UHGV virus genome: UHGV-0075716
Length of the DNA: 40,150 nucleotides
From: a virus
Strand: one strand, 5' to 3'
Shown in pieces: positions 14-40,150 of the stretch. The notes below the pieces were generated by a model. It was given only the letters and a program-made list of their open reading frames with translations, made no database searches and had not been told where the DNA came from. Made by a program: the position numbers and the translations under genes. Within the stretch, counting starts at the first letter, position 1. Every line of letters starts with the position of its first letter.

Positions 14-1207
14 GTGGATAAAATAATTTTACCCACCGGATTTTTACCCATGCTCACCGTTAAGCAGATTGAAGCAGCAAAGCCGAAAGAAAAACCATAC
101 CGCCTACTCGATGGTAATGGCCTGTACCTTTATGTCCCTGTATCAGGGAAAAAGGTATGGCAGCTTCGCTACAAGATTGACGGTAAGGAGAAAATCCTGA
201 CCGTCGGAAAATATCCACTTATGACTTTGCAGGAGGCAAGAGATAAAGCATGGACCGCGAGGAAAGACATCTCGGTTGGCATCGATCCGGTAAAAGCGAA
301 AAAGGCTTCGTCTAACAACAATTCCTTTAGTGCGATTTACAAGGAATGGTACGAGCACAAGAAGCAAGTCTGGTCAGTAGGCTATGCAACTGAACTTGCA
401 AAAATGTTTGATGACGACATTTTACCTATCATCGGCGGCCTTGAAATTCAGGATATTGAGCCGATGCAACTGCTGGAAGTAATCCGCAGATTTGAAGATC
501 GCGGTGCAATGGAGCGAGCCAACAAAGCCCGCAGAAGATGCGGCGAGGTTTTCCGTTACGCTATTGTCACTGGTAGGGCTAAATATAACCCGGCACCTGA
601 CCTTGCTGACGCCATGAAGGGATACCGCAAGAAGAACTTCCCGTTTCTTCCTGCAGACCAGATCCCTGCATTCAACAAAGCACTGGCAACATTTTCAGGA
701 AGTATCGTATCGCTCATTGCGACCAAAGTTTTACGCTACACAGCCCTAAGAACGAAAGAGCTTCGTTCCATGCTATGGAAGAACGTCGATTTTGAAAACA
801 GGATTATCACCATCGACGCCAGTGTGATGAAGGGACGCAAAATTCATGTGGTCCCGATGTCAGACCAGGTGGTTGAACTTCTCACTACGCTAAGCTCCAT
901 CACCAAACCAGTATCAGAGTTTGTTTTTGCCGGGCGCAACGATAAGAAGAAGCCAATCTGCGAGAACGCGGTTCTACTTGTGATCAAACAAATCGGCTAT
1001 GAGGGTCTAGAAAGCGGTCACGGATTCAGGCATGAATTCAGCACGATTATGAACGAGCACGAATGGCCTGCTGACGCTATTGAAGTGCAACTGGCACATG
1101 CCAACGGCGGATCTGTGCGCGGTATTTACAACCATGCTCAGTATCTCGATAAGCGCAGAGAAATGATGCAGTGGTGGGCGGATTGGCTTGATGAGAAGGT
1201 AGAGTGA
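14..1207 (+). CDS. int: Tyrosine integrase, P4/IntS-like; probable true start ATG at 50 (385 aa)
   Basis: ORF track 397 aa; N-terminus after M at 50 reads MLTVKQIEAAKPKEKPYRLLDGNGLYLYV, typical of the arm-binding domain of P4-family integrases; C-terminal catalytic region with HGFRHEF...RGIYNHAQY motifs. Confidence 0.9.
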   Translation: MDKIILPTGFLPMLTVKQIEAAKPKEKPYRLLDGNGLYLYVPVSGKKVWQLRYKIDGKEKILTVGKYPLMTLQEARDKAWTARKDISVGIDPVKAKKASSNNNSFSAIYKEWYEHKKQVWSVGYATELAKMFDDDILPIIGGLEIQDIEPMQLLEVIRRFEDRGAMERANKARRRCGEVFRYAIVTGRAKYNPAPDLADAMKGYRKKNFPFLPADQIPAFNKALATFSGSIVSLIATKVLRYTALRTKELRSMLWKNVDFENRIITIDASVMKGRKIHVVPMSDQVVELLTTLSSITKPVSEFVFAGRNDKKKPICENAVLLVIKQIGYEGLESGHGFRHEFSTIMNEHEWPADAIEVQLAHANGGSVRGIYNHAQYLDKRREMMQWWADWLDEKVE

Positions 1208-1446: not shown

Positions 1447-2188
1447 TTATTGCGTGAGCTTCGCATGATAGCTGGAGCATCTCTTGTCATCACTAATTAG
1501 CTCCGCTTTATCCGTTCTTGCCCATATTATATTTCTTTTTATTATTTTTGCTGGATTACCGGCTGCTGCACACATAGATGGCACATCTTTAGTTACAATA
1601 CTCCCATACCCAATGACAGATCCGCTTCCAACAGATACCCCTTTCATTATAGAGACATTTCTCCCTACCCATACGTAACTAGATATAATGATATCTTTTG
1701 CCCAATTAATCCTTTTTTTGCTATGAATATCAAATATAGGATGCCCATCTGATGCACGCAAAATAACATCTCTTGCTATCATGCAGTCATGGCCAATTGT
1801 AACATTGCACTTATCAGTGACGACTTCAAAACCTGCACCTATTGTCGTTCTTCTACCGATAATAACTTTTGAACCTTTTGTTGCGACAATATCACCTTTA
1901 ATCTTACTGTTTTTATGTATTCTTACGTAATTATTATCCCCCCTAAATATTACGGTAAGCCATCGACACTCAACATCATCTTCTATAATAAGTTTGTTAT
2001 TGTTTCCATTGAACTGAACTTTATTCTCTTTGCTATTTACAAGATCTCCACATACAAAAATATTACCTGACCCATTATCATCAATGGAAAACGAGTCTTG
2101 AGTCTTGAGTCTTGAGTCTTGAGTCTTGAGTCTTGAGTCTTGAGTCTTGAGTCTTGAGTCTTGAGTCTTGAGTCTTGAGTCTTGACAT
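1447..2188 (-). CDS. neuO: Hexapeptide-repeat (LbH) O-acetyltransferase, NeuO-like, phase-variable; frame interrupted in this sequence (OFF)
   Basis: ATG at 2188..2186 with AGGA 7 nt upstream is followed at once by 13 heptamers; that frame stops at TGA 2083..2081. The LbH body (IGHDCMIARDV..., VWVGRNVSIMKGVSVGSGSVIGYGSIV) is open from 2094 to 1447 in another frame. 12 or 15 repeats would fuse them (~244 aa). Confidence 0.75.
2094..2184. repeat. 13 perfect tandem copies of heptamer AGTCTTG (AAGACTC on coding strand)
   Basis: Counted directly: 91 bp, 13 x 7, ending 1 nt before the start codon of the acetyltransferase. Confidence 0.97.
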
Positions 2189-2341
2189 GTTAGTATCCTA
2201 CGTTATTTTACCACTAGTTACTTTTCTTGTCATTAAAAAGCATTTAAATTTTTATATTTAATTTCGTTGACGTCAATGTTTTTTGCCAATGTACTTACTT
2301 CTTTATGTGAGCAGTTCATATTTTTGACGCCAACGAAACAT

Positions 2342-5287
2342 TTAGTGCTTCCCTTCTATTAAGTCTAACCTAGCTTTTATTCTTTCTATTTCTCTGCGCT
2401 GCCATGCCGCCTCGATATAGAATAAGAGATCAGGTCTGACCCCCCATCTAGATCCTGCTGGCGTTATTTCAACGCGCTCAATGATGTCTTCTATTACCAT
2501 CACTGGATTATCATCCTCATCAACAATGATGCTCCCGTCATTATCAGTCAGCGGCATTTCCCTTTGGCCAGTAATGACGTCATCATATACTGCGGGATAA
2601 TCGTCATAGCAAAGAAAGGCATAGCGGCATGTTGTGCTTTCTTCTTCCATGAGTCCGTGAGAAATAAGAACATCACGAAGTTGCTGCGCGATTACACCAT
2701 GATGTATCCTCGCCCCTTCTTCCCCCTTTATAGCGACAGCGTTCAGCCATTTATAAGCGATATACCTGACGTCACCCCAGGCATCCAGCAATGCTTCGTC
2801 AGGAGAGACCGGCTCTGTCTTTAATGTTCCGTCACTGGTAACCACAGGATTGGAGCCAAGATAAACTGTCGAGAACCTGTTTCCCGGACCACCAAGAGCA
2901 TTTACATTATCAAGATAAGGTTTAACATCTCCGTTCTCAAAAAGATGTTCGAGTGCGTTATATACCGCGCGACGTGGAGTACTGCTTCCGGAACCATGCA
3001 ACGTTATCATTGCACCATCTGCTGAAGACGTTGTTTCACCGCCGCTAACGATTAATCTCTGAGCGGTAACATCATCAGACGGTACTTTCTTCGCAATAAT
3101 GGCGTAATTACCCTCAAGTTTGACTTCCGCGCGAACTTGTCCTGATGTACCTGCATGGACAGTCAGTGACTGGACGGCAACATCATCTGTGAAATCAACG
3201 GGTACAGGAACCGTCCTCACGCCTGACGTCGACATAAAAGTAGGAAGCGTTCTGTTAGGAGTGGCTCCGTAGACAAAATCCCTTGAAACAAATTCTTCCT
3301 GTTTAATTTTCACCCTGAAACAATACAAATCAGCCGGGTGACCATCGTGAACATAAGGATATTTTCTGTTGTTATCCCCTATGCTCCATGGGTTTAGAAA
3401 ATCTTCCCCACCGAAAATGTAGTACAGCCAGTTGTCTTTGATACAAACTGAACCAACACCAACCGCAGAGTTAACTATTCCGCCCTGATAAATCTGATCA
3501 GTAACATTAACCCACTCTACATTATCCAGACTCCACTCATTGACGTTAACTCTGGTCATAAATGTTCTTGGATAATTTCCTGCATAACGGTTATCAGGTT
3601 CTCCTCCTTCCCACTCACCAAATGCGCGCTCACTGCCAAAAATAACCAGCTCATCGCCAACTTTGGCAAAAGGAAGGTTTGAGTGATGAACATTATTTGG
3701 GAAGCGAAGAGAATTCCATGATGTACCTAAATCAGAGCTTCTGTGCAATGAACTACCGGGTTGAGTACTTAATGTCCCCCTGGTCGTCAGATACAGAATG
3801 CCATCATAATATTTTACACATGGCTCAGATGCATTCGCCTCATATTCTGCAGGTATGCGTCTGCGAACAAAGCTACCAGGAGAACCGAAAGCATCAGAGA
3901 AATAGAGTATCCCAAGCTCGCGTGGACCAATATCACCATTATGGTAGCCAACAGCAAAACTGTTATCGCTAATCGTCGCAAAACTGTGAATCTCAGTAAC
4001 AGGAGTGCTTCCGTCAACAAAAGAAGGAATAGTTCCAAGACTGGTTTTTCTCCATGGTGACGAGTGAAATGATGTGCCAAAACTCCAGTATCTACCCTCG
4101 TTATTCTGATCCACATCCTGGGTATTTTGCGTCGTAACTGTAAAGGTATTTTTATCAATAACAGTAGTCACCGTCATATTCCCGGTAACATCTGTAACAC
4201 CAGAGTTTGAGAAGTTGACAAAATCACCAGCAAATAATCCGTGATCAGTAATGCGAATATAAGCGACTTGCTGATTTGCTGCTTTCGTTATACCACCATA
4301 AACGCGAAGGCTGCGACTCATTGGGCGATCCCACAACTCTGCAACCTGCAGTTTATTTCCTCTCACGGTCCGCGTCTCAATTACAGCAAAAAGGCGATTT
4401 CTGACAACCCCCATACTCATGCAGTGATAGTTAACTGTGGGATAGTTTTCATGTAAATCTGTAAGCCATTCCGGCGTTGTCCAGGTCTTCCCGTCATCTC
4501 CTGAGCGAACCCATGCAACATGGAGGTTATTTACACCATGGCGGTCTCCAGCCATAAAAGGCGCATAGATGACATTGTCATATACAAACGTTTTATCCTG
4601 CGTCCAGGCGTTGTACCACGGTGTATCTGTAATTTTAAATAACTCTCCCTGGATAAAATCTTCAGAAGCATAAAAAAGAGGCTGACCCGGTATTCTCTCA
4701 AATAAAAAACGAGCATTTTTAAATCGACTGACATCTGGAAGAGTTGATACTTTAAAAGTAAGCCCTCGCCCATCTATCTTTTCACCACCTGTTGCAACAG
4801 AAAGTAATTCTGATAGAGCTGATGTATCATCATGAACACCATCACCAATAGCCCCCCAACCTCTTACATCATAACTGTCTCTCCATCTTGCTATCTGAAG
4901 TTTTGGGTATTTATTCGCTCCATCTGGGTCTTCTAATTGCTGCCGTAGTTGATCTGGGTCATACTTCAGCACATTAGGAAAATAGAACTGCTGCGCACCA
5001 TACGCATCATAAACAGCCATAGAATGGCCTTGCACGGTAACGAATTTGGCAATCTGTCCGTTATATACAGGATATCCAGCAGCGTTAATGATGATTGGTT
5101 GAGAAACAGGAACGTGAGAACCGTCTTCGTTCTCCACATAAGCCTGAATCTGGTTTTCAGGATTTACAGGGTCAGTATCAATTTTACCGATATAAATTTT
5201 GCCATTAGCTACGGCTTTAAAAGAACGCGCCATAGTGAAGAGTTGCGAAGGCATCGATACAATCACATTGGCTGTAATGTCTGTCAT
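2342..5287 (-). CDS. Tailspike: P22 gp9-type head-binding N-terminus fused to endosialidase (sialidase beta-propeller) with C-terminal intramolecular chaperone domain
   Basis: N-terminus [11 protein letters not shown]...[14 protein letters not shown]...VLKYDPDQ resembles P22 tailspike head-binding domain; Asp-boxes SGDDGKTW and SSDLGTSW; C-terminal ...VVTSDGTLK...[12 protein letters not shown]... resembles autocleaving chaperone domains. Confidence 0.85.
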
Positions 5288-5409
5288 TTAATTTGCTCCA
5301 GATACAAGGAATCGCCGAAGCATGGCTACGGTGAATTTTGGGCATAAAAAAACCCAGCCGAAGCTGGGTCGTTGCGTTGGTTATTGACCTACACTTTTCG
5401 TGCAGGTAG

Positions 5410-6333
5410 TTAAAGTTTTATTGAGTGGCACGCTCTATCACGTATCGCTGCGAATGAAGCTATCTCTTTAAGTGCCCAGCTTTGCTCAGCCATTAAATGG
5501 CGAAGTGCTTTTAGTTCAGCTCTTACTGCTGAAACGTCATACCCCGCTTTTGTCAGAATATTGATTAGTTTATACGCCGGACTGCATTCAACGAGTGCGC
5601 TGCGGTCAAGAGCAACAGTATCACCGCATTGCTGCCTGATAATGGCGTAAGGTGCATTTTCAGCAAACCATGAAATCGGGAAGTTAATATCCAGTTTTGG
5701 CGCTGGTAACTCTTCTTGTTTGCCAATGAACTCACCTTCAAGTGGAACTCGAGCTGCAAGTGACAGTGCTTCGGTGAACTGCTCCTCACTGATTTCTTTG
5801 TACGAACATCCAAAATGGGATTTCAGTGAGGACCACATGGTGATCATCGCCTTAGCCTGTTTTTCTTTTGGCAGAGACTGACCGCGACTCATGACGAGTT
5901 GTTTAATGGCTTCCTGCTGTTCAGTGGTGATTTTACCCGGCAACGCCTTTTTAGCTTTGCGTGGGTTAACTACATGACCTTTAGTCCAGTACTCGTATAG
6001 CACATCGTCACACTCTTCCTGATACTGGATTACCTTGTCGCGGATTTCAGGACGGACTTTGTTTGGCTGAATGCTTGAAAGCCAAGCCGCAAACTTACGA
6101 AAGGCAAGGCATATCATTAACTGTTTACCGCCAGCAGAAGGTATTTCGATTTCCGAAATACCTTTGACAAATCTCTGTTTTAATTTAACAAATTGAGCAG
6201 CCCAAACCATACCCATGCCTTCTACAACGGGTTTCATAGGAACGTAAGGTTCATTGTTAATGCTGACCAAAAAGAGATTTGTTCCGTGGAATGGAACGTT
6301 GATTGTATGTTCTGCAATTGCTACACTCGTCAT
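5410..6333 (-). CDS. ant: Antirepressor Ant (AntA N-domain plus KilAC-type C-domain)
   Basis: 307 aa; position downstream of arc and upstream of tailspike as in P22 immI; N-terminal pattern similar to P22 Ant. Confidence 0.8.
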   Translation of the reverse strand: MTSVAIAEHTINVPFHGTNLFLVSINNEPYVPMKPVVEGMGMVWAAQFVKLKQRFVKGISEIEIPSAGGKQLMICLAFRKFAAWLSSIQPNKVRPEIRDKVIQYQEECDDVLYEYWTKGHVVNPRKAKKALPGKITTEQQEAIKQLVMSRGQSLPKEKQAKAMITMWSSLKSHFGCSYKEISEEQFTEALSLAARVPLEGEFIGKQEELPAPKLDINFPISWFAENAPYAIIRQQCGDTVALDRSALVECSPAYKLINILTKAGYDVSAVRAELKALRHLMAEQSWALKEIASFAAIRDRACHSIKL

Positions 6334-6566: not shown

Positions 6567-6719
6567 TCACACCGTTACCCCCTCTCTCTTCAGGCTGTCT
6601 ATCAGGCGCTTGATAACCTCTGAGTTAAACGACCTGCACTCTTCCTTTGCCCTGCTACCGATAGCATCCTTTAACGACTGCGGCATCCTTACCAAAATCC
6701 TACTTATTTCTTTCTCCAT
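6567..6719 (-). CDS. arc: Arc-type ribbon-helix-helix repressor (start at internal ATG 6719, ~50 aa)
   Basis: MEKEISRILVRMPQSLKDAIGSRAKEECRSFNSEVIKRLIDSLKREGVTV; RSFNSEV motif like P22 Arc (NGRSVNSEI); GGAGG 6 nt upstream of ATG. Confidence 0.8.
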   Translation of the reverse strand: MEKEISRILVRMPQSLKDAIGSRAKEECRSFNSEVIKRLIDSLKREGVTV

Positions 6720-6757
6720 GTTACCCTCCCCACAAACAACTCTTTCCGAATACAAAA

Positions 6758-6813
6758 GATAGCAAAGTGAGTATATCTAGTCAAAATTTTTTTGCATACA
6801 CTTTGATATCAAA
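6758..6813. promoter_or_regulatory. arc-mnt divergent control region with candidate operators
   Basis: TAGC...ATCTA inverted half-sites at 6758-6782 and a perfect 12-bp palindrome TTTGATATCAAA at 6802-6813, 20 bp upstream of mnt. Confidence 0.35.
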
Positions 6814-6833
6814 TTGAATACCAAAGGTGTGAT

Positions 6834-7082
6834 ATGGCAAAGGGTGTGTCAATTTCTCCAACTACGGTAAGAATCCCTGAATCTTTACGCGAGGCTCTTT
6901 CTGTCAGAGCATCAAAAAATGGTCGCTCTGTTAACTCCGAGATCGTCATGATTTTGCAAGCCGCGATTGATGAAGATAGGTCGCCAAAGTCAGTTGAGTC
7001 ATTTGCTCAGCAAGAAGCTGACAAATTCAAAGAGGCGCTGCTTGAGACGCTAAAGACCATGTATGGTAAGGATGAAAAATAA
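6834..7082 (+). CDS. mnt: Mnt-type ribbon-helix-helix repressor
   Basis: 82 aa; KNGRSVNSEIVMILQAAI and C-terminal KFKEALLETLKTMYGK resemble P22 Mnt (ANGRSMNSEL..., ...VFDTLKDLYKK). Confidence 0.85.
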   Translation: MAKGVSISPTTVRIPESLREALSVRASKNGRSVNSEIVMILQAAIDEDRSPKSVESFAQQEADKFKEALLETLKTMYGKDEK

Positions 7083-7618
7083 TGCTGCACACAATTCATT
7101 TCTTATGCCCCGTTAACACTGCCACTGTTGGGCAACTTCAGAACCACTGTCTCACCGCATTATCTCAGGGCGCAACTGAATTAAATATCCATATATCAAG
7201 TCAGGGAGGGGAAACTGCCGCTGGCTTTACTGCGTATAACTTTCTTAAGTCACTCCCTGTTACCGTTAGAACTCACAACATAAGCAATGTTGAATCCATA
7301 GCTAATATCGTTTTCCTGGCTGGCTCAGAACGTTTCGCAAACCCATTATCAAGATTCCTGTTACATCCTCTATTATGGGGCTTTGCCACCCCAGCCGCCG
7401 ACCATGCCAGATTGAGAGAGTACGGGAAATGCCTCGATAACGATCTTGATCGCTTCGTTGAGACGTTCAATATCGACATCGGAACCCATATTAGGTGGGA
7501 ATCCCTGATAGCAGACTCGACCATTTTGGATGCTAACAAGGCTCTTGAGCATGGCATAATTAATTCCATAAAAACTGCAAGGCTGGTATCCAATCAGGCA
7601 AACTGGTGGGTTGTTTGA
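7082..7618 (+). CDS. ClpP-family (S14-like) serine peptidase homologue, translationally coupled to mnt
   Basis: Gap-free match to ClpP core: ISSQGGETAAGFTAYNFL...VTVRTHNISNVESIANIVFLAG versus INSPGGVITAGMSIYDTM...[20 protein letters not shown], Ser aligned; His in LLHPL; Asp later. Start overlaps mnt stop (TAATG). Confidence 0.7.
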   Translation: MLHTIHFLCPVNTATVGQLQNHCLTALSQGATELNIHISSQGGETAAGFTAYNFLKSLPVTVRTHNISNVESIANIVFLAGSERFANPLSRFLLHPLLWGFATPAADHARLREYGKCLDNDLDRFVETFNIDIGTHIRWESLIADSTILDANKALEHGIINSIKTARLVSNQANWWVV

Positions 7619-7643
7619 TGGGTAAATCATGATTACTCCTTAT

Positions 7644-7676
7644 AAAAAACCCACCTGACGGTGGGTTTCATTTCTT
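7644..7676. terminator. Bidirectional rho-independent terminator between the ClpP-like gene and the lipoprotein gene
   Basis: A-run, CCCACC-TGAC-GGTGGG hairpin, T-run. Confidence 0.7.
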
Positions 7677-8094
7677 AATCTTGCTTCGTAGAAGGTATAA
7701 GAGATGCATTTGCCTCTTTTGGCTTCAATGTATACATCCCACCATTAAATGGATCAACAGCAAGCCAACCGATTAACCCACCAAACACAAGGTTTCCACC
7801 AATATACCAACCATTAGCATTGGCTTTGATTGGCAGGGTAACTGGTTCGTACCCATCCTTTTCCATAGTGATCTGGTAGCTCTTTTTGCCAAAATAACTA
7901 CCATCTGACTTGGCAAGAGTTACTCCTTGTGGAGTCTTGCCTTGCGCAACAATCACGCCTGATTCATCTTTTACCTTAAAGCTCGCACCGGAAGGGTTGC
8001 TGTTCACTTGCACAAGTTGCGTTTCATCACCAACAATAGTTGCGCACCCAGATAACATCATAGCGCCAGCAACGACGCCAATAATCCTCTTCAT
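7675..8094 (-). CDS. Lipoprotein (signal peptide with lipobox LSGC), function unknown
   Basis: MKRIIGVVAGAMMLSGCATIV...; start at internal ATG 8094; Gly-rich C-terminal segment. Confidence 0.7.
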   Translation of the reverse strand: MKRIIGVVAGAMMLSGCATIVGDETQLVQVNSNPSGASFKVKDESGVIVAQGKTPQGVTLAKSDGSYFGKKSYQITMEKDGYEPVTLPIKANANGWYIGGNLVFGGLIGWLAVDPFNGGMYTLKPKEANASLIPSTKQD

Positions 8095-8211
8095 ATCAAT
8101 TTCCATATTTAAAAAACCGGAAACATCCTAATGACAAACCATTCAAATGTGAAGTAGGCAAAAGATGTTTGCTTTTTTCATGGTATCCTGCTCAAAACTA
8201 AGGAGGTTGGT

Positions 8212-8439
8212 GTGAAGCGATGGTTCCTCATAATTACTGTTTTCGCGATCATTTACACTATTTTCCCTGCATTAAAAGCACCAATGCAAATAATTTCGCT
8301 TGCAATAATTGCAATTGGTGCTTTCATTGCAGTAGCCGTACTTGTGTTTAAGGTTTTAAAGTTTTTAGTTTGGCTATCAAAAGACGATGGATGCAAAGTT
8401 CATCAAGAAAAAGAAGGCAAAATAACCAAAGTTGACTAA
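8212..8439 (+). CDS. Small hydrophobic membrane protein (two predicted TM helices)
   Basis: GTG start with AAGGAGG 5 nt upstream; AT-rich; two long hydrophobic stretches. Confidence 0.5.
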   Translation: MKRWFLIITVFAIIYTIFPALKAPMQIISLAIIAIGAFIAVAVLVFKVLKFLVWLSKDDGCKVHQEKEGKITKVD

Positions 8440-24656: not shown

Positions 24657-25054
24657 GTCTTACCCCCAATAAGGGGATTTGCTCTATTTAATTAGGAATA
24701 AGGTCGATTACTGATAGAACAAATCCAGGCTACTGTGTTTAGTAATCAGATTTGTTCGTGACCGATATGCACGGGCAAAACGGCAGGAGGTTGTTAGCGC
24801 GACCTCCTGCCACCCGCTTTCACGAAGGTCATGTGTAGAAGGCCGCAGCATAACTATCACTGATGAATTCAGGATAGCCAGTGGCTACGGCTCAGTTTGG
24901 GTTGTGCTGTTGCTGGGCGGCGATGACGCCTGTACGCATTTGGTGATCCGGTTCTGCTTCCGGCATTCGCTTAATTCAGCACAACGGAAAGAGCACTCGG
25001 TGCATTTAAGACAAGCTCCATAAGGGAGAATGCTCTTACCTGTTACACAGATAT

Positions 25055-25110
25055 AAAAAATCCCGAAACCGTTATGCAGGCTCTAACTATTACCTGCGAA
25101 CTGTTTCGGG
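25055..25110 (-). terminator. Late terminator tR-prime (3' end of 6S RNA)
   Basis: CCCGAAAC...GTTTCGGG stem with inner GCAGG/CCTGC, followed on - strand by T6; region reads as near-identical to lambda late leader. Confidence 0.55.
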
Positions 25111-25253
25111 ATTGCATTTTACAGACCTCTCAGCCTGCGATGGTTGGAGTTCCAGACGATACGTCGAAGTGACCAACTAGGCGGAATCGGTAGTAAGCGC
25201 CGCCTCTTTTCATCTCACTACCACAACGAGCGAATTAACCCATCGTTGGGGCA

Positions 25254-25282
25254 AATTTACCCAACTTTATTCAAAAAGTCAA
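25254..25282 (-). promoter_or_regulatory. Late promoter pR-prime (with qut region downstream)
   Basis: On - strand TTGACT-17 nt-TAAATT, 40-70 bp downstream of Q stop, as in lambda. Confidence 0.7.
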
Positions 25283-25324
25283 TATCATGCCGTTAATATG
25301 TTGCCATCCGTGGCAATCATGCTG

Positions 25325-25948
25325 CTAACGTGTGACCGCATTCAAAATGTTGTCTGCGATTGACTCTTCTTTGTGGCATTGCACCACCAGAGCGTCATAC
25401 AGCGGCTTAACAGTGCGTGACCATGTGGGTTGGGTAAGGTTGGGGATTAGCATCGTTACAGCGCGATATGCGGCGCTTGCTGGCATCCTTGAATAGCCGA
25501 CGCCTTTGCATCTTCCACACTCTTTCTCAACAACTCTCCCCCACTGCTCTGTTTTGGCAATATCAACCGCACGGCCTGTACCGTGGCAATCTCTGCATCT
25601 TGCGCCCGGCGTCGCGGCACTACGGCAATAATCCGCATAAGCGAATGTTGCGAGCACTTGCAGTACCTTTGCCTTAGTATTTCCTTCGAGCTTTGCCACA
25701 CCACGATATTTCCCCGATACCTTGTGTGCAAATTGCATCAGATAGTTGATAGCCTTTTGTTTGTCATTCTGGCTGAGTTCGTGCTTGCCGCAGAATGCAG
25801 CCATACCGAATCCGGCTTGTGATTGCGCCATCCCCATAGCAGCCATCACATCAGTACCGGAAAGAGAGTCAGAAGCCGTAGCCCGTGGTGAGTCACTCAT
25901 CATTGGGCTTTTTGGCGAATGAAATTTAGCTACGCTTTCGAGTCTCAT
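25325..25948 (-). CDS. Q: Late antiterminator Q (lambda-type)
   Basis: 207 aa; MRLESVAKFHSPKSPMMSDSP... with CRDCHGTG...CGRCKG zinc motif matches lambda Q as recalled. Confidence 0.9.
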   Translation of the reverse strand: MRLESVAKFHSPKSPMMSDSPRATASDSLSGTDVMAAMGMAQSQAGFGMAAFCGKHELSQNDKQKAINYLMQFAHKVSGKYRGVAKLEGNTKAKVLQVLATFAYADYCRSAATPGARCRDCHGTGRAVDIAKTEQWGRVVEKECGRCKGVGYSRMPASAAYRAVTMLIPNLTQPTWSRTVKPLYDALVVQCHKEESIADNILNAVTR

Positions 25949-26133
25949 GGCCTTCCCCTTTTGCCCTGTTTGACCATCAGGACGCCGTTAACTATTACGT
26001 GACGCTCGCCTTTGCTGTCTCGGTTGTACTTGAGCACTGTTCCTCTTGCGCAGGAAAGCATCCTTGCCACTTCGGTCTGATTGCCTCGTGTCTGGATAAG
26101 AAGCTCTGGTATCGTTTGAATTGTGGCGTTCAT
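25945..26133 (-). CDS. ninH: NinH-like protein
   Basis: 62 aa; IPELLIQTRGNQTEVARMLSCARGTVLKY resembles lambda NinH; just upstream of Q. Confidence 0.7.
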   Translation of the reverse strand: MNATIQTIPELLIQTRGNQTEVARMLSCARGTVLKYNRDSKGERHVIVNGVLMVKQGKRGRP

Positions 26134-26492
26134 GCGTTCTCCAGTTCGGTGATTTTTATTCCAAGCCTTCCGCCTGGTACTTTCACGCCACGAATTACGC
26201 GAATGTCATCGAATTGCTCGTCGTCTTCCGCAAATCCGGCGTGGATAAGGGAGTCGAGTAAACCTTTCAGGATGTTGTCGAGGTCGCGACGGCGGGAGTC
26301 CGGAACGTCTGCGATGACTTTGATACGGAGTCGTGATTTGGTGAAAATGTCTAACTTGAGTTGGCGGATGATTTGCTGAACGTCTTTTCGGTATTTCTGG
26401 CCTTTGTCGCTTATGTAATATTGGCTTCCCCGTCTTCGCCAGTAGGTATTCACCGACGGCGGGTATGGGAGCACAAACTGATATTCGTTCAT
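26130..26492 (-). CDS. rusA: Holliday-junction resolvase RusA
   Basis: 120 aa; PPSVNTYW...DVPDSRRRDLDNILKGLLDSL matches RusA signature. Confidence 0.85.
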   Translation of the reverse strand: MNEYQFVLPYPPSVNTYWRRRGSQYYISDKGQKYRKDVQQIIRQLKLDIFTKSRLRIKVIADVPDSRRRDLDNILKGLLDSLIHAGFAEDDEQFDDIRVIRGVKVPGGRLGIKITELENA

Positions 26493-26779
26493 GACTTAAT
26501 CTTCCCCTCCTTCAGCAGTATCGCCTGCGTCCTGATCACGCCTTCGAGGTGGTAAAGTCTGGCGTCTTTGTTGTCGAGATTATGGGTGCGTCGGTCGATT
26601 TCATCGTGACACGCGCTACAAGCCCATGCGCCGATCAGGTCGTCAGGCTTCATTCCCGTTCCGCAAATTCCAGCCATCCGGTAATGTGCCAGAACTGTAG
26701 TTTCAGGATTGCCATTGCATACGCCGTAAATACGTACCTGGCATTCTCTGCCGCGCGCTTCTTTGCGTAGGTTAGCCAT
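26489..26779 (-). CDS. DUF1364/YbcO-like zinc-binding protein
   Basis: 96 aa; MANLRKEARGRECQVRIYGVCNGNPETTVLAHYR...CSACHDEIDRR pattern. Confidence 0.6.
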   Translation of the reverse strand: MANLRKEARGRECQVRIYGVCNGNPETTVLAHYRMAGICGTGMKPDDLIGAWACSACHDEIDRRTHNLDNKDARLYHLEGVIRTQAILLKEGKIKS

Positions 26780-26984
26780 TTACCTTCCCTCGCAATTGAA
26801 GAATTGACTGAAGGTCTTTTTTAATAAATATGCGAGTGCGAATTGAGCAGTAGTTTTCCTTCATTCTGGCGTAGTAATAGTCTTTTCTTTGCTTAAGCTT
26901 GTTGGCATCCGCTGTCATCCAGTCTTTTACAGCAAACTTAATTAACCAGCGGTGGCAGAGATACCATTTCAGGTAATCACTCAT
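26772..26984 (-). CDS. Hypothetical small protein (AT-rich insert in nin region)
   Basis: 70 aa ORF, start overlaps ninF stop; no recognisable family. Confidence 0.4.
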   Translation of the reverse strand: MSDYLKWYLCHRWLIKFAVKDWMTADANKLKQRKDYYYARMKENYCSIRTRIFIKKDLQSILQLRGKVNG

Positions 26985-27153
26985 CGTCTTCTTCCTCGTA
27001 CATTGAGCTATTCGGATCGCTCATCAGTTCTGCGCAGCAGTGCTCACACACGTGAACTTCCAGCACATGCAGCTTCTGACCGCAGTTAGCGCACGTTAAA
27101 GCTCGCTCGACGCTTTCTTTCTGGTATTGAATGGATTGGGATGGGCTAAGCAT
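26977..27153 (-). CDS. ninF: NinF-like protein (58 aa, below ORF-track cutoff)
   Basis: Manual translation [58 protein letters not shown], close to lambda NinF as recalled. Confidence 0.7.
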   Translation of the reverse strand: MLSPSQSIQYQKESVERALTCANCGQKLHVLEVHVCEHCCAELMSDPNSSMYEEEDDE

Positions 27154-27547
27154 TATTGGCGTCCTGCATCATGAGAAAGACAATCATGGCAGCGCGGAGT
27201 GGGTTTTCATCTTGAGTCATATGATATGGGGTACTATCACCGCCAACTTTTCTATGCGCTGCCTTCCATAATCCATTTTCTGGTGCTGGAATAATTCCAA
27301 TTCTGTTCTCTACGATAATCGGCTCTGCGTCTGATGGGCTTTTACAGTAATCAACCGTTTTTATTGCATAACCAGTTTCGTCATCCCACTCAACACCAAC
27401 GATTGATGTTCCCAACTTTGCGATTTCGCAATCTTCGGGAGCAAATCCACAGCAAATTGCCACTCGCTTGTTAATTTCAAAATCACTTAACTGTGAATAA
27501 TCCATTGTCATTTCCTCGCACGATGTCTTAGCCACCGGATATCCCAC
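27146..27547 (-). CDS. NinX-position protein (DUF2591-like)
   Basis: 133 aa; sits between ninE and ninF where P22 carries ninX. Confidence 0.5.
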
Positions 27548-27684
27548 AGGTGAGCCGTGTAATTGAAGGTTTTTACGTCAGATTCTTTTGGGATTGGCTT
27601 GCGTTTATTTCTGGAGCGTTTCGTTGGAAGGTATTTGCAGTTTTCGCAGATGATGTCGGTGATACTTCGTCGCTGTCGCATCAT
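27508..27684 (-). CDS. ninE: NinE-like protein (start at internal ATG ~27684)
   Basis: [58 protein letters not shown] resembles lambda NinE. Confidence 0.7.
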
Positions 27685-28208
27685 GCCGCTCTCCTGACGC
27701 CCCGCCCGATCGTCATCAATGTCGCTTTGGATACGGTAGTAAACATCCGTCGAGGACTGATGAACGGTCGCCAAATCAGCAGCATGGAACCTTTGCTGTT
27801 TCCCTTCTTCTCCAACCCTGTCGATGGTTCGATAAAATTAATCCGTCCATCAGTAATGATGCGAACTTCGTCAACACTCTCCAGAGCCTTGCTGAACCAT
27901 CCGACAGACATATCCTCTGGCACAAGCATCACTATCGTCTGTCGCTGTTGTATGCACTGCTCAGCGGCTTTTTCCACCCACGGCCTGATATTGCTGTACG
28001 GTGGGTTATTCCAGATTGCACCGTGGCTTTCCCACTCAGAATTGAGCGCGTCGTCGGCCTCAGTTAGCCAGTGAGCACACAGAGCATTTTTGTCGCTCGC
28101 TGCCGAATCCAGCCAGAATCCAAACTCAATATCCAGTGCATCAAAAAGCCAAAGCGGCGTTTGCCAGCAGTCCTTGTCGTGTGCTGGCGTATTTGATTTG
28201 ATAGTCAT
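27681..28208 (-). CDS. Phage Dam-type DNA N6-adenine methyltransferase
   Basis: [15 protein letters not shown]... and NPPY motif (IWNNPPYS); likely start ATG 28208 overlapping ninB stop (ATGA). Confidence 0.8.
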
Positions 28209-36465: not shown

Positions 36466-36931
36466 AATTGCCAATGAATACGCAAAGCTGATAGATTCAG
36501 ATTTAGAGCCAGAGATGATTGCTGACACAATAGAAGGCATGGAAGGAGAATTTACCGATAAAATAGAGCAACTTCTTGCCATTATTAAAAATGAATCTGG
36601 TTATGCTGAACGCCTCAAGGAAGAGGCACAGTCACTAAATGAGCGAGCCGCAGTAATTCAAAATAAGATTGACAGCATTATGGCGTATATAGCGTCATCG
36701 CTTGAAATGGTTGGCAAGAAAAAGATTCGAGCAGGTATTCACCAGGTAACAATCCGCAAACCGTCAGAAACTGTAGAAATCATCGACTCAAGCGCCCTTC
36801 CTCCTGAATACGTTGAGTTTGAAACGACAATTAAAGCCGACAAACTGGCAATCAAACACCAACTAAAAGCAGGAATAAATATCCCCGGCGCTCAACTCAA
36901 AGTTGGGAAACCTTCACTTCTTATCAAATAA
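36443..36931 (+). CDS. Recombination-module protein (Gp157/Gam-like, coiled-coil N-terminus); start possibly GTG 36449
   Basis: 162 aa directly after recT; coiled-coil then ...ALPPEYVEF...AIKHQLKAGINIPGAQL pattern. Confidence 0.45.
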   Translation: MPVSKLYEIANEYAKLIDSDLEPEMIADTIEGMEGEFTDKIEQLLAIIKNESGYAERLKEEAQSLNERAAVIQNKIDSIMAYIASSLEMVGKKKIRAGIHQVTIRKPSETVEIIDSSALPPEYVEFETTIKADKLAIKHQLKAGINIPGAQLKVGKPSLLIK

Positions 36932-36942
36932 CGGTATCGCCT

Positions 36943-37257
36943 ATGAAAAAGACTCCATGGGAGAAATGGGAAGTCGATTTCTTGCGCGAAGTAGCGGCGA
37001 CAATGCCAGTTGGAGTTATCGCTGAAAAACTGGAAAGGACTGAAAAAGCAGTAATGGCGAAAGCAACAAGGATTGGCGCTGACATTGTTAGCCGACTTCG
37101 TGGAAGACGATGGACAAGAGCCGAAGTATCACTTTTCGGTAAGTTCTCCGCAGAAGAAATAGCAATTGCAACCTGCCGCTCAATTTATTCGGTAAGGGCT
37201 ATGCGATACAAGCTAAAAAAACTCGATGAAAAAAGAGCAGGCATACAAATAAATTAA
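36943..37257 (+). CDS. Hypothetical protein
   Basis: 104 aa ORF in ea region. Confidence 0.5.
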   Translation: MKKTPWEKWEVDFLREVAATMPVGVIAEKLERTEKAVMAKATRIGADIVSRLRGRRWTRAEVSLFGKFSAEEIAIATCRSIYSVRAMRYKLKKLDEKRAGIQIN

Positions 37258-37273
37258 CATGGAGTAATTAACA

Positions 37274-37555
37274 ATGAAGCTAAACATCGACCTCGGTAAA
37301 TACGTTATTACTGGAACAAAACACGACCTGATTCTTAATGAAAGAGGAATTATCAAAGAAGGTGAGAATGCAGGGAAAGAAACACTAAGCCGTATCGGTT
37401 ATTACAGCAAGTTTGAGCATCTGGTCAAAGAGTTATGCAACCGTGAAATCCTGTTATCTCAGGCGCAGACGCTACAGGATATTCAGCAGCATATCGAAAC
37501 TTTAGGTATGTCACTTAGCATGGCTATTGACCAGTTCGTGGAGAGTAAATCATGA
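37274..37555 (+). CDS. Hypothetical protein
   Basis: 93 aa ORF with AGGAG-like RBS. Confidence 0.5.
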
Positions 37556-37715
37556 GAGGACTTGCATACAATCCCGGCATTCTTCCAGCAGAAATGATTA
37601 TTCGCCAACGCGTAAAGCCAATGCCATCGAGAGAGGAATTACTTAAGCGAAACTCGTTTCCATCAGTGAATCAAAACAAACATCTGAATGCGATGTGGCG
37701 CAAAGGAGGCGACCA

Positions 37716-38213
37716 GTGAGCAAGATTGACTATCAGGCACTGCGTGAAGAATTTCAATACATGCAGGAGCATTACAGCGATCCTGCGGATCGTGAAAAAC
37801 AGGAACTTTATATTTACGCAGAAACGTTGCTGTATGAACTGGATAAAAGCCAGCAATACATAAAACGCCGCGACCAGGAGAACGAGGATATTGCGCTAAC
37901 GGTTGGGAGGCTGCGTGTTGAGCTGGAAGCAGCAAAAAAGCGCATAGCAGAACTGGAAGCCGAACCTGTAAGCCAAACTTACAAGTTGAACGAGCTGTCG
38001 GGCAACTATCCGGTAACTCCGGATGGTTGGATAAGCTGTAGTGAGCGAATGCCCGCTCAAGATGATTGGATTTTAATTTATTCAAAGCACGGCGAGTATA
38101 TGGCAGGACAGGTACAAGGGGAATACGTGGAGTTGAGCGACGGCACTTTATCGTGGTTAGGGAACGCCTTGTACTGGATGCCTCTACCGGAACCGCCGCA
38201 GGAGGTTAATTGA
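37716..38213 (+). CDS. Ead/Ea22-like protein with DUF551-like C-terminus (GTG start 37716 behind AAGGAGG; ORF track starts 37695)
   Basis: Coiled-coil N-terminal half; C-terminal [26 protein letters not shown]...WMPLPEPP. Confidence 0.5.
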
Positions 38214-38497
38214 TGGTCTCCTTCGCGAAATATACGATTATTGACTGGATAGCATTCATTCAGGTTTTGCTCATCTGGTTTTATATGGCTTACAGGAGTG
38301 GACAGTGGATTGTCAGTGTAGCCTGTAGCAATGGATGGCGTTGGTGGAACCGAAAGAATAAAAAAGCGCTGGCCTTGGCTTCGTTTTACGAAGCATTCAA
38401 TCTTAACAGTCTTCAGCCTGGTTCTGTCGTTGTAGTCACCACTCAAAGCGGCATGACGATACAAATTCACAAGCCAAAGGAGGAAGGTCGTGGCTAA
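38210..38497 (+). CDS. Hypothetical small membrane-associated protein
   Basis: 95 aa; GGAGG upstream; hydrophobic N-terminal segment. Confidence 0.45.
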   Translation: MMVSFAKYTIIDWIAFIQVLLIWFYMAYRSGQWIVSVACSNGWRWWNRKNKKALALASFYEAFNLNSLQPGSVVVVTTQSGMTIQIHKPKEEGRG

Positions 38498-38774
38498 CCT
38501 GCAACTTGCCGTTAAAGGTGAATACTTCGATGCCATGATTCGCGGAGAGAAAACGGAAGAGTATCGCCTGTGTAATGACTACTGGAATAAGCGAATTATG
38601 TTCCGCGAGTATGACCGCCTGATTATCACAAAGGGATATCCGAAGCGCGACGATTCCAGCCGCAGAATTGACGTCCCGTATGAAGGGTATGAAATCAAGA
38701 CAATCACACATCCGCACTTCGGCGATAAACCGGTAAAGGTTTACGCGATAAAGGTAAATATCGGCAATAAATAA
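38490..38774 (+). CDS. ASCH (PUA-like) domain protein
   Basis: 94 aa; GEKTEEYR fits the ASCH GxKxxExR motif; GTG start behind AAGGAGGAAG. Confidence 0.55.
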   Translation: MANLQLAVKGEYFDAMIRGEKTEEYRLCNDYWNKRIMFREYDRLIITKGYPKRDDSSRRIDVPYEGYEIKTITHPHFGDKPVKVYAIKVNIGNK

Positions 38775-38816
38775 CAATCCTCGCACTCGCGGGGATTTCT
38801 TTTATATGGGGATAAT

Positions 38817-39617
38817 ATGACCATCCACTTTCACGGCAGCCCAATATGGGGGGATGAGCATGCCCCTACAGATATGCTGATTAAAGCCCTTTACCGTGAT
38901 GGTGGGGCTTTTGTTTCATTTGCCAGACCAGAGCAGATGAAAAAGATTGCCATGTTCCCTTGTGATATACGCCTTGATAACGGCGCTTTTAGCGACTGGA
39001 TGAAAGCATTAAAGAAAGGCACTCCGGTAGACTGGAGTAAGAGACGAGCAAAATTCTACGACTTTGTTGGGAAGTGGTTCAGCAGAATTGAATGGTTTCT
39101 TATACCTGACGTTATCGAAGGGACAGAGGCAGAAAACGACGAGCAGATTGAGTGTGTTCCTGATTGGCTAAAATCAAAAGCGGTTCCTGTCTGGCATACC
39201 GACGAATCAATTGAACGTCTTTTACGCCTTTCTGGCAAATTTGAATGGGTGGCGATTGGATGCTGCGGCCCACACAGGCACATACGCTCTAAATGGTGGG
39301 AACAGAGAATGGATGAAGTTTTCACTGAACTTTATATCAATCGTAATTTGAAAGTGAAAATTCATGGTCTTCGAATGCTCGACGTGAGAGTTCTTGGTAT
39401 GTATCCGTTCGCCAGTGCGGATTCTACTAATGTTGCTGTTAACGTACCGAAGACAGAGAAGCGATTTCCTGAGATTACCGACAAACTGGCACGTACAGCT
39501 GTACTTCGCGCTGCTATTGAAAAGGTGCACCCGCCATCGATATCAGCATGGGTAGACAGAAAGATGAGAGAGCCGGCGCAAGCCGGTTTTTTATTTGAAT
39601 TCACCGACGCCGCTTAA
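38817..39617 (+). CDS. Hypothetical 266-aa protein; possible TGT/DpdA-like (tRNA-guanine transglycosylase fold) enzyme - low confidence on function
   Basis: ORF is solid; function guess rests on weak motif similarity (IHFHGSP, IRLDNGAFSD vs TGT LTDSGGFQ, EWVAIGCCGP, KIHGLRMLD, PFASADS) and alternating beta/alpha pattern. Confidence 0.55.
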   Translation: MTIHFHGSPIWGDEHAPTDMLIKALYRDGGAFVSFARPEQMKKIAMFPCDIRLDNGAFSDWMKALKKGTPVDWSKRRAKFYDFVGKWFSRIEWFLIPDVIEGTEAENDEQIECVPDWLKSKAVPVWHTDESIERLLRLSGKFEWVAIGCCGPHRHIRSKWWEQRMDEVFTELYINRNLKVKIHGLRMLDVRVLGMYPFASADSTNVAVNVPKTEKRFPEITDKLARTAVLRAAIEKVHPPSISAWVDRKMREPAQAGFLFEFTDAA

Positions 39618-39674
39618 TGCGGATTTCTTTTATCTGAACTCGCTACGGCGAGTTTTGTTTTATGGAGATGATAA

Positions 39675-39842
39675 ATGCACTTCCAAGTCACAGGTGAATG
39701 GAATGGAGAGCCATTCAACAGGGTTATCGAAGCAGAGAACATCAACGACTGCTATAACCACTGGATGATATGGGCGCAGATAGCGCATGCAGACGTAACC
39801 AATATTCGAATTGAAGAACTGAAAGAACACCAATCCGCCTGA
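39675..39842 (+). CDS. Candidate 55-aa protein
   Basis: GGAG upstream; MHFQVTGEWNGEPFNRVIEAENINDCYNHWMIWAQIAHADVTNIRIEELKEHQSA; stop lies inside a terminator hairpin. Confidence 0.4.
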   Translation: MHFQVTGEWNGEPFNRVIEAENINDCYNHWMIWAQIAHADVTNIRIEELKEHQSA

Positions 39843-39856
39843 TGGCGGTTTTTTAT
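39834..39856 (+). terminator. Rho-independent terminator
   Basis: CCGCC-TGAT-GGCGG hairpin followed by T7. Confidence 0.6.
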
Positions 39857-39899
39857 TACCTGATTTGCAGGTTCGATTCCCTATTCGGAGATAGCACTC

Positions 39900-40100
39900 A
39901 TGCAACACGAACTACAGCCTGATTCCCTGGTTGATTTGAAATTCATCATGGCTGATACTGGCTTTGGTAAAACCTTCATCTACGACCGGATTAAGTCCGG
40001 CGACCTGCCAAAAGCCAAAGTTATCCACGGTCGAGCAAGATGGTTATATCGTGACCATTGTGAATTCAAAAATAAGCTCTTAAGCCGCGCCAATGGGTAA
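39900..40100 (+). CDS. xis: Excisionase/recombination directionality factor, AlpA/TorI-like
   Basis: 66 aa; HTH pattern ...GFGKTFIYDRIKSGDLPKAKVIHGRARW... typical of AlpA-family regulators; located at the opposite end of the element from int. Confidence 0.75.
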   Translation: MQHELQPDSLVDLKFIMADTGFGKTFIYDRIKSGDLPKAKVIHGRARWLYRDHCEFKNKLLSRANG

Positions 40101-40150
40101 AATAGCGGGTAAAATATTTCTCACATCTAAAAAACACCATTCCAATCAAT

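Follow-up and report, generated by a model that had tools for sequence, protein, structure and literature searches.

The open reading frame at 2342..5287 (-) of the window, i.e., the whole stretch of 40,150 nt of viral DNA analyzed here (UHGV-0075716), very probably (at around 96%) encodes the tailspike of a CUS-3-type P22-like E. coli K1 prophage, a protein that would both bind and destroy the receptor. Judged from its sequence, the locus is a CUS-3-type endosialidase tailspike gene of a kind that has already been described, and there is nothing new about the gene as such. Sequence comparisons divide the predicted protein into four parts, namely a head-binding domain (aa 1-113), a linker (aa 114-145), an endosialidase body of the GH58 type (aa 146-817), and an S74 chaperone (aa 818-981), which lie in the window as follows:

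2342..5287 (-), whole tailspike gene (siaK1 allele), from the open reading frame and its match to CUS-3 siaK1
4949..5287 (-), P22-type head-binding (tail-attachment) domain, aa 1-113, from PF09008
4853..4948 (-), linker, aa 114-145, from K1F homology (MAFFT alignment)
4652..4852 (-), endosialidase N-terminal extension, aa 146-212, from PF12218 (E 7.6e-37)
3302..4651 (-), catalytic six-bladed beta-propeller, aa 213-662, from PF12217 (E 1.4e-232)
4481..4504 (-), Asp box SGDDGKTW, aa 262-269, from a motif search
4070..4318 (-), lectin-like beta-barrel within the propeller, aa 324-406, from PF12195 (E 1.6e-45)
3716..3739 (-), Asp box SSDLGTSW, aa 517-524, from a motif search
2837..3301 (-), trimeric beta-helix stalk, aa 663-817, from PF12219 (E 7.4e-78)
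2345..2836 (-), intramolecular chaperone and self-cleaving domain, aa 818-981, from PF13884 and PDB 3gw6

The tailspike gene and its attachment domain

The reading frame opens with an ATG that has a GGAG Shine-Dalgarno sequence 8 nt on its 5' side and continues without interruption over 981 aa to the stop codon at 2342..2344. Across 100% of its length the gene shares 99.0% DNA identity with siaK1 of phage CUS-3, and 970 of the 981 residues are identical to the CUS-3 protein ABQ88383.1 (98.9% protein identity). The siaK1 gene is annotated there as "endosialidase tailspike protein" with endo-alpha-sialidase activity (GO:0016996) based on a direct assay (PMID 16689790). The precursor has a computed mass of 109.3 kDa, in agreement with the value of 109 kDa given for the enzyme of CUS-3 (PMC5380687), which we counted in favor of a CUS-3-type identity. 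Copies that are 100% identical to the gene are present in four complete genomes of E. coli and carry the annotation "phage tailspike protein". Matches in Pfam, the PDB, and the phage collections sufficed for an unambiguous identification of the gene. A Pfam profile search of the 981-aa protein returned six domains in the expected order, all of them over the curated cut-offs, and crystal structures at 66-91% identity span nearly every domain of the tailspike; the single-sequence AlphaFold2 model of the protein (mean pLDDT 32.5, pTM 0.23) was uninformative. The initial annotation of this DNA came without an identification of the gene as an already characterized one of a named phage.

Head_binding (PF09008) matches aa 1-113 over its full profile (positions 1-113 of 113; E 6.9e-66), and alignments to PDB entries begin at residue 1 and extend over aa 1-118 for Sf6 gp14 and aa 1-117 for P22 gp9, with E values from 1e-44 to 1e-64 for the Sf6 and P22 N-terminal domain structures. 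We indeed confirmed the resemblance of the N-terminal ca. 110 aa to P22 gp9 that had initially been proposed, as the first 113 residues are 75% identical to this protein and 91% identical to Sf6 gp14. The conserved YDPDQ motif (aa 109-113) closes the head-binding domain, and similarity to P22 and Sf6 ends directly after it. What follows is homologous to residues ca. 213-245 of the K1F endosialidase, with 18 of 33 residues identical over aa 113-145 in a MAFFT alignment and PDB 9vvr aligned to aa 113-150. Since the linker is thus already K1F-homologous, we place the junction between the P22-type and the endosialidase-type part at about aa 113/114.

The endosialidase body and its probable substrate

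The central part of the protein aligns end-to-end with the crystal chains of two endosialidases, those of K1F (PDB 1v0e and 3gvl; E=0 over aa 145-817, 438 of 665 aligned residues identical) and phi92 (PDB 4hiz; E 2.6e-271), and the alignment of the stalk reaches the end of the mature K1F chain. The propeller scores 771.6 bits with PF12217 (cut-off 24) and spans profile positions 1-367 of 367. It carries both Asp boxes that the initial annotation had taken as typical of sialidase propellers, a number that compares to 0.0006 matches to S.D.G.TW expected from composition; at least one match was obtained in only 11 of 20000 shuffles of the protein. Asp boxes are a generic feature that many beta-propellers share, and the generic BNR_2 family of Pfam matches the protein weakly, which might suggest that the propeller is that of an exo-sialidase, or is lectin-like and non-catalytic, instead of belonging to an endo-acting depolymerase. 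We consider this hardly conceivable given the full-profile matches specific to endosialidases, the end-to-end alignment to the crystal chains, and the conservation of the catalytic residues detailed below. A generic exo-sialidase was rejected with a BNR_2 score of 17.4 bits, under the cut-off of 31.4.

Five residues of the K1F enzyme reported to be catalytic or intolerant to substitution (H350, R549, E581, R596, and R647; PMC12632334) correspond to H250, R456, E488, R503, and R554 in this tailspike and are all identical, which makes the latter candidate active-site residues. The further residues listed as critical in K1F (Q330, D331, H527, S528, K585, N699, R866, and D994) are kept as well. 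K410 of K1F is replaced by G310, at a position that was dispensable in a mutational scan of K1F (PMC12632334). Together with the 98.9% identity to the assayed CUS-3 enzyme, this conservation predicts endo-cleavage of alpha-2,8 polysialic acid, and the initially proposed K1 polysialic acid receptor agrees with the 99.0% identity to siaK1 and the conserved K1F active-site residues.

The 11 of 981 residues that differ from the CUS-3 reference (P43, A49, P121, A207, R309, D366, V548, G767, T807, A832, and I932 in the protein studied here) are few and scattered over the domains. R309 lies in the propeller, G767 and T807 lie in the stalk, and D366, where CUS-3, ZX5, and K1F all have G, lies in the beta-barrel that forms the polysialic acid binding site of K1F (PMC12632334). 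Scanning of the K1F enzyme further identified the stalk and the loops of the barrel as elements that tune discrimination between hosts (PMC12632334). With one substitution in the binding barrel, two in the stalk, and a neuO gene on the phage itself, specificity might have shifted from the plain K1 capsule to O-acetylated polysialic acid or to the alternating alpha-2,8/2,9 polymer of K92. This appears very improbable to us because the active-site residues are all identical to K1F, the protein is so close to the assayed endosialidase in sequence, the substitutions are so few and dispersed, and K1 strains such as RS218 and CE10 (O7:K1) are the sources of its closest relatives.

A predicted self-cleaving chaperone domain at the C-terminus

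Peptidase_S74 (PF13884) matches aa 818-878 with 41.6 bits (cut-off 22). The C-terminal chaperone of the K1F endosialidase (PDB 3gw6) aligns to aa 698-979 (E 8.4e-95), and the neck appendage of GA-1 (PDB 3gud) matches the C-terminal domain at E 1.4e-8. The endosialidase-like chaperone inferred before at the C-terminus is therefore present, though with 164 instead of ca. 150 aa, and a profile search for sialidase and S74 peptidase domains, the check suggested at the time, detected both of them above their cut-offs. S74 domains feature a Ser-Lys dyad, with the lysine five residues past the serine, and a GVIAQ trimerization motif (PMC3742440). GVIAQ is found at aa 864-868, and S911 and K916 of K1F (endoNF) align with S818 (2834..2836) and K823, making S818 the predicted cleavage residue with K823 as its partner in what would be an autoproteolytic release after folding of the trimer. 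The predicted products have computed masses of 90.7 kDa (mature chain) and 18.6 kDa (released fragment).

A mosaic prophage with neuO next to the tailspike

Two features flank the tailspike gene, of which the first had already been noted as a capsule-modifying enzyme carried by the same phage:

1447..2188 (-), neuO, phase-variable polysialic acid O-acetyltransferase, from a PDB 3jqy match and repeats
5351..5370 (-), terminator-like hairpin then T7, in the gap that separates ant from the start of the tailspike, from a consensus match alone

The body of neuO, directly downstream of the tailspike gene, is an open reading frame at 1447..2094 (-) that matches the NeuO structure over all 215 aa (PDB 3jqy; E 2.6e-142). 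The gene has 13 AAGACTC repeats at 2093..2183, compared to 19 in the CUS-3 reference, and is ON when the repeat number is a multiple of three (PMC3046976, PMC13001214). As this does not apply to 13 repeats, neuO is out of frame and its phase OFF. Upstream of the tailspike, the open reading frame at 5410..6333 encodes a P22_AR_N domain (ant), and the gene order of int, neuO, tailspike, and ant is shared with CUS-3. The hairpin between ant and the tailspike falls inside a stretch named boundary sequence bsq1 in the CUS-3 record, and a promoter scan returned 15 sites versus 13.1 +/- 3.5 in shuffled sequence, i.e., no excess.

The genes for the P22-like virion (portal, terminase, coat, scaffold, and ejection proteins) are all present as long open reading frames, as are the lysis genes, and the virion genes are 95-97% matched to CUS-3 and other Lederbergvirus phages. 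In one of the genomes with a 100% identical tailspike copy, the prophage adjoins tRNA-Arg. Collinear near-identity to CUS-3 over the whole genome was not found: 71% of positions 1-25000 of the window align to CP000711 at 95.7%, while about 29% have no match; for the last 15 kb the best phage match covers just 62%, and this early region (25-40 kb) is best matched by lambdoid phages other than CUS-3, for example 683R2, HK106, and mEp506. The partial alignment to CUS-3 and the lambdoid early region mark it as a mosaic CUS-3-like relative rather than the same phage.

The sizeable unmatched portions of the window could also fit an intact gene that is a silent passenger of a defective, non-inducible prophage, with the locus kept in the host only for neuO. 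CUS-3-type prophages are fixed across lineages such as ST95 (PMC13001214), and the tailspike of the related prophage phiv205-1 is split by an insertion sequence. This scenario seems unlikely, as the frame of 981 codons is unbroken with each functional residue examined conserved, and none of the P22-like virion genes is missing. In addition, a passage of PMC5850374 that cites Parent et al. 2014 refers to CUS-3 virions purified and reconstructed by cryo-EM.

Proposed function

By analogy to the literature on K1F and P22, three chains would trimerize with the C-terminal domain as the nucleus, and this domain would then cleave itself off at S818 via the S818/K823 dyad, so that a mature chain of ca. 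91 kDa would remain. Docking of the trimer to the P22-like tail, probably in six copies as in P22, would fall to the N-terminal domain, and the virion could thereby tunnel through the capsule toward the outer membrane. The neuO product, when ON, would O-acetylate the same polymer, polysialic acid. In published studies, O-acetylation by NeuO is associated with a lower sensitivity toward lytic K1 phage. It is conceivable, yet very doubtful, that the allele with its 11 substitutions, including D366 and the changes in the stalk, differs from the RS218 reference enzyme in processivity or in tolerance of the NeuO-acetylated capsule; if true, the allele of the tailspike would be coupled to whether the adjacent neuO is ON or OFF.

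The discovery value of the locus is low, with the CUS-3 tailspike, its P22-type adaptor, the kinship to K1F, and phase-variable neuO all published since 2005-2007, the CUS-3 virion already imaged, and close homologs crystallized. Its use lies more in annotation, because it marks the host as a probably K1-capsulated E. coli with a CUS-3-type prophage and also gives the phase state of neuO (13 repeats, OFF). Moreover, the three-module architecture of the tailspike could be correctly recovered from the letters of the sequence.

Comparison with known systems

The closest relative, SiaK1 of CUS-3 (CP000711.1, ABQ88383.1), has the same length of 981 aa, the same domain order, and the same neighbors int, neuO with its AAGACTC repeats, and ant, but the prophages differ past mnt/arc and over large parts of the early region. 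Stummeyer et al. 2006 and King et al. 2007 are reportedly the studies to be named for this endosialidase tailspike, and its chimeric architecture is said to have been the central point of the former. A passage of the review PMC5380687 refers to Stummeyer et al. 2006 and presents this architecture as the textbook example of module exchange among tailspikes.

The endosialidase of K1F (endoNF, gp17) shares the catalytic body and the chaperone from aa 113 onward, with an identity of about 66% in the body (aa 146-817) and about 56% in the chaperone. Unlike the prophage studied here, K1F is a lytic T7-like phage, and its endosialidase is attached by a T7 tail-fiber N-terminal domain (PF03906) and Tail_spike_N (PF18668) instead of a P22 head-binding domain. 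Conversely, the tailspikes of P22 (gp9), Sf6 (gp14), and HK620 have the head-binding domain ending at YDPDQ in common with this protein, and the genes of these three tailspikes take the same place in the immI region, downstream of ant. However, the bodies of the P22, Sf6, and HK620 tailspikes are O-antigen endoglycosidases that fold into a right-handed parallel beta-helix and have neither a propeller nor an S74 chaperone domain.

A further relative is the tail protein of the temperate Uetakevirus vB_EcoP_ZX5 (MW722083, QTH80017.1), which has 99.5% DNA identity over nt 522-2914 of our query. The two proteins are near-identical between about aa 175 and about aa 965 and have the same Pfam domains in body and chaperone, whereas the N-terminal roughly 190 aa of the ZX5 protein are unrelated and lack Head_binding, and the last roughly 15 aa differ, too. 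The junction with ZX5 lies inside the End_N_terminal domain (about aa 175) and not at a domain border.

Domain architecture of the tailspike

The interval 2342..5287, called a chimeric tailspike in the initial annotation, is filled on the minus strand by a single, uninterrupted open reading frame of 981 codons with an ATG start and a GGAG ribosome-binding site 8 nt upstream of it. Searched against Pfam-A with curated cut-offs, its product carries six domains in order, all well above their thresholds.

Pfam-A domains of the tailspike
aa 1-113, Head_binding (PF09008), E 6.9e-66
aa 146-212, End_N_terminal (PF12218), E 7.6e-37
aa 213-662, End_beta_propel (PF12217), E 1.4e-232
aa 324-406, End_beta_barrel (PF12195), inserted in the propeller, E 1.6e-45
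aa 663-817, End_tail_spike (PF12219), E 7.4e-78
aa 818-878, Peptidase_S74 (PF13884), E 1.6e-10

The generic BNR_2 model remained under its cut-off in the same scan, so the sialidase signal is endosialidase-specific. Structures of the endosialidase of K1F, a lytic T7-like coliphage, match aa 145-817 (1v0e and 3gvl; E=0), the phi92 endosialidase structure matches the tailspike with E 2.6e-271 (4hiz), and that of the K1F C-terminal chaperone matches aa 698-979 (3gw6; E 8.4e-95). Structures of Sf6 gp14 and P22 gp9 match the N-terminus only, with 91% and 75% identity over aa 1-113, respectively. These searches bear out the earlier proposal of a P22-type head-binding N-terminus, a sialidase-fold body and a C-terminal self-cleaving chaperone of the endosialidase type. 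A single-sequence AlphaFold model was unusable (pLDDT 32.5).

The similarity to P22 and Sf6 ends directly after a YDPDQ motif at aa 109-113. By aa 113 the sequence already aligns with K1F, opposite K1F residues about 213 onward, which in these alignments puts the change from the P22-type to the endosialidase-type module at aa 113/114. In the linker, 18 of 33 residues are identical to K1F. Both Asp boxes named in the initial annotation are present in the body (SGDDGKTW, aa 262-269; SSDLGTSW, aa 517-524) and are not due to chance, given that the composition of the tailspike predicts 0.0006 matches to S.D.G.TW and that only 11 of 20000 shuffled versions contained at least one.

Catalytic and cleavage residues

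Aligned with K1F gp17 (from DQ111067), the tailspike has identical residues (H250, R456, E488, R503 and R554) at the positions of K1F H350, R549, E581, R596 and R647, which are catalytic and mutation-intolerant (PMC12632334). Further residues critical in K1F (Q330, D331, H527, S528, K585, N699, R866 and D994; PMC12632334) are all kept. K1F K410 is replaced by G310, and K410 is dispensable in vivo (PMC12632334). S818 and K823, at the border of the C-terminal domain, are the counterparts of K1F S911 and K916; autoproteolysis of the endosialidase chaperone domain needs a serine-lysine dyad and cuts at the serine (PMC3742440). A GVIAQ motif, part of a region required for trimerisation (PMC3742440), lies at aa 864-868. 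The computed precursor of 109.3 kDa would yield products of 90.7 and 18.6 kDa, and the CUS-3 enzyme is given as 109 kDa in a review table (PMC5380687).

Relationship to CUS-3 siaK1

Among phage records, megablast aligned 100% of the gene at 99.0% DNA identity to CUS-3 (CP000711.1), a P22-like prophage of E. coli K1, whose record names it siaK1, "endosialidase tailspike protein", with endo-alpha-sialidase activity annotated in GO from direct assay (PMID 16689790). Of the 981 amino acids, 11 are not shared by the two proteins; they are scattered over all domains and include none of the functional residues examined. D366 (codon at 4190..4192), in the beta-barrel that binds polysialic acid, stands where CUS-3, phage vB_EcoP_ZX5 (ZX5) and K1F share a G. 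An unchanged copy of the gene (100% identity, all 11 substitutions) is present in four complete E. coli genomes of human origin, in one of which the prophage adjoins tRNA-Arg, intS and yfdC. At a coverage of at least 80%, the gene occurs in 181 of 5426 complete E. coli genomes, annotated as "phage tailspike protein". The gene is already known, and its interpretation as a chimeric endosialidase tailspike is supported at the level of sequence.

Genomic context and neuO phase state

The gene order agrees with the CUS-3 record:

14..1207, plus strand, integrase
1447..2188, minus strand, neuO (phase-variable polysialic acid O-acetyltransferase)
2342..5287, minus strand, tailspike
5410..6333, minus strand, P22-type antirepressor (ant)
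after the antirepressor, Arc/Mnt-type regulators

Past these regulators lies a complete P22-like set of ejection, head, portal, terminase and lysis open reading frames. Only 71% of the first 25 kb aligns to CUS-3, and the early region (25001..40150; replication, immunity and recombination genes) finds its best matches in 683R2, HK106, mEp506 and E212, not CUS-3. By these alignments, the window is a mosaic CUS-3-like prophage with the canonical int-neuO-siaK1-ant module, and the resemblance of its early region to other lambdoid phages indicates that lambdoid backbones of more than one kind carry the int-neuO-tailspike module.

Beyond ant, the stretch 6567..8439 departs from the CUS-3 RS218 reference:

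6567..6755, minus strand, Arc/Mnt-type
6834..7082, plus strand, Arc/Mnt-type
7082..7618, plus strand, ClpP-like protease (PF00574, 3.4e-12), at a site where a head protease is not usually encoded; the CU37RT-2 prophage has this gene too
7675..8106, minus strand, lipoprotein-like, matching phrog_6823 of unknown function

A strong terminator-like hairpin (5351..5370, minus strand; 8 bp with 5 GC pairs, then T7) separates ant from the tailspike start in a stretch that the CUS-3 record names boundary sequence bsq1. For the tailspike to be expressed, late-operon transcription would therefore have to read through the hairpin or be antiterminated. Such expression is known for P22 gene 9.

The initial annotation also held that the same phage encodes a capsule-modifying enzyme, and the neuO body indeed matches the NeuO crystal sequence (3jqy; E 2.6e-142). 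Its 5' end contains exactly 13 AAGACTC units (2093..2183); full-length translation demands a multiple of three (PMC3046976, PMC13001214), and frame 0 from the ATG meets stop codons right after the repeats, so this copy reads as out of frame and phase OFF. About two thirds of sequenced neuO-bearing K1 genomes are phase OFF (PMC13001214), and the CUS-3 reference, with 19 repeats, is OFF too. Just upstream of neuO lies a promoter-like site (ATGACA-17-TAAAAT with TG, 2233..2205); the promoter scan gave no excess of sites over shuffled sequence.

Proposed mode of action

The comparisons directly show the architecture, the conservation of the residues for catalysis and cleavage, and near-identity with an enzyme that has been assayed; work on K1F and P22 suggests how the protein would act. 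The C-terminal domain would nucleate folding of the stalk trimer and then cleave itself off at S818, and the N-terminal domain would anchor the trimer in the tail, which is of the P22 type. The propeller, assisted by binding sites in barrel and stalk, would degrade alpha-2,8 polysialic acid and thereby bring the virion to the outer membrane. NeuO, when ON, would acetylate the same polymer; this is reported to make cells less susceptible to a lytic phage of K1 strains, with superinfection exclusion as a suggested role (PMC13001214).

Comparison with other tailspikes

Nothing about the tailspike finding is new, and CUS-3 virions have been reconstructed by cryo-EM (Parent et al. 2014, cited in PMC5850374). 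According to a review (PMC5380687), the chimeric design is the published example of tailspike module exchange (Stummeyer et al. 2006): the tailspikes of P22, Sf6, HK620 and CUS-3 have a common N-terminal domain, and CUS-3 and K1F a common catalytic domain, whereas the K1F N-terminus is of the T7 fibre type. Our Pfam scan of K1F gp17 confirms this alternative adaptor (Phage_T7_tail and Tail_spike_N). In the APEC prophage phiv205-1 (MN340231.1, 344..5739), an insertion with two transposase open reading frames splits the tailspike gene after about nt 207, in the head-binding domain; neuO is retained, and this prophage probably cannot make a functional tailspike. The endosialidase body and chaperone recur in the temperate Uetakevirus ZX5 (MW722083.1, 803..3922, against window 2374..4766), where the part between about aa 175 and about aa 965 is 99.5% identical in DNA and follows an unrelated N-terminus. 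The 5' recombination junction falls within End_N_terminal and not at a domain border. Endosialidase domains are noted in the ZX5 paper, which leaves CUS-3 unmentioned. The comparison suggests that the endosialidase module has recently been exchanged between two genera of temperate podoviruses, which adds a little to the established picture of module exchange.
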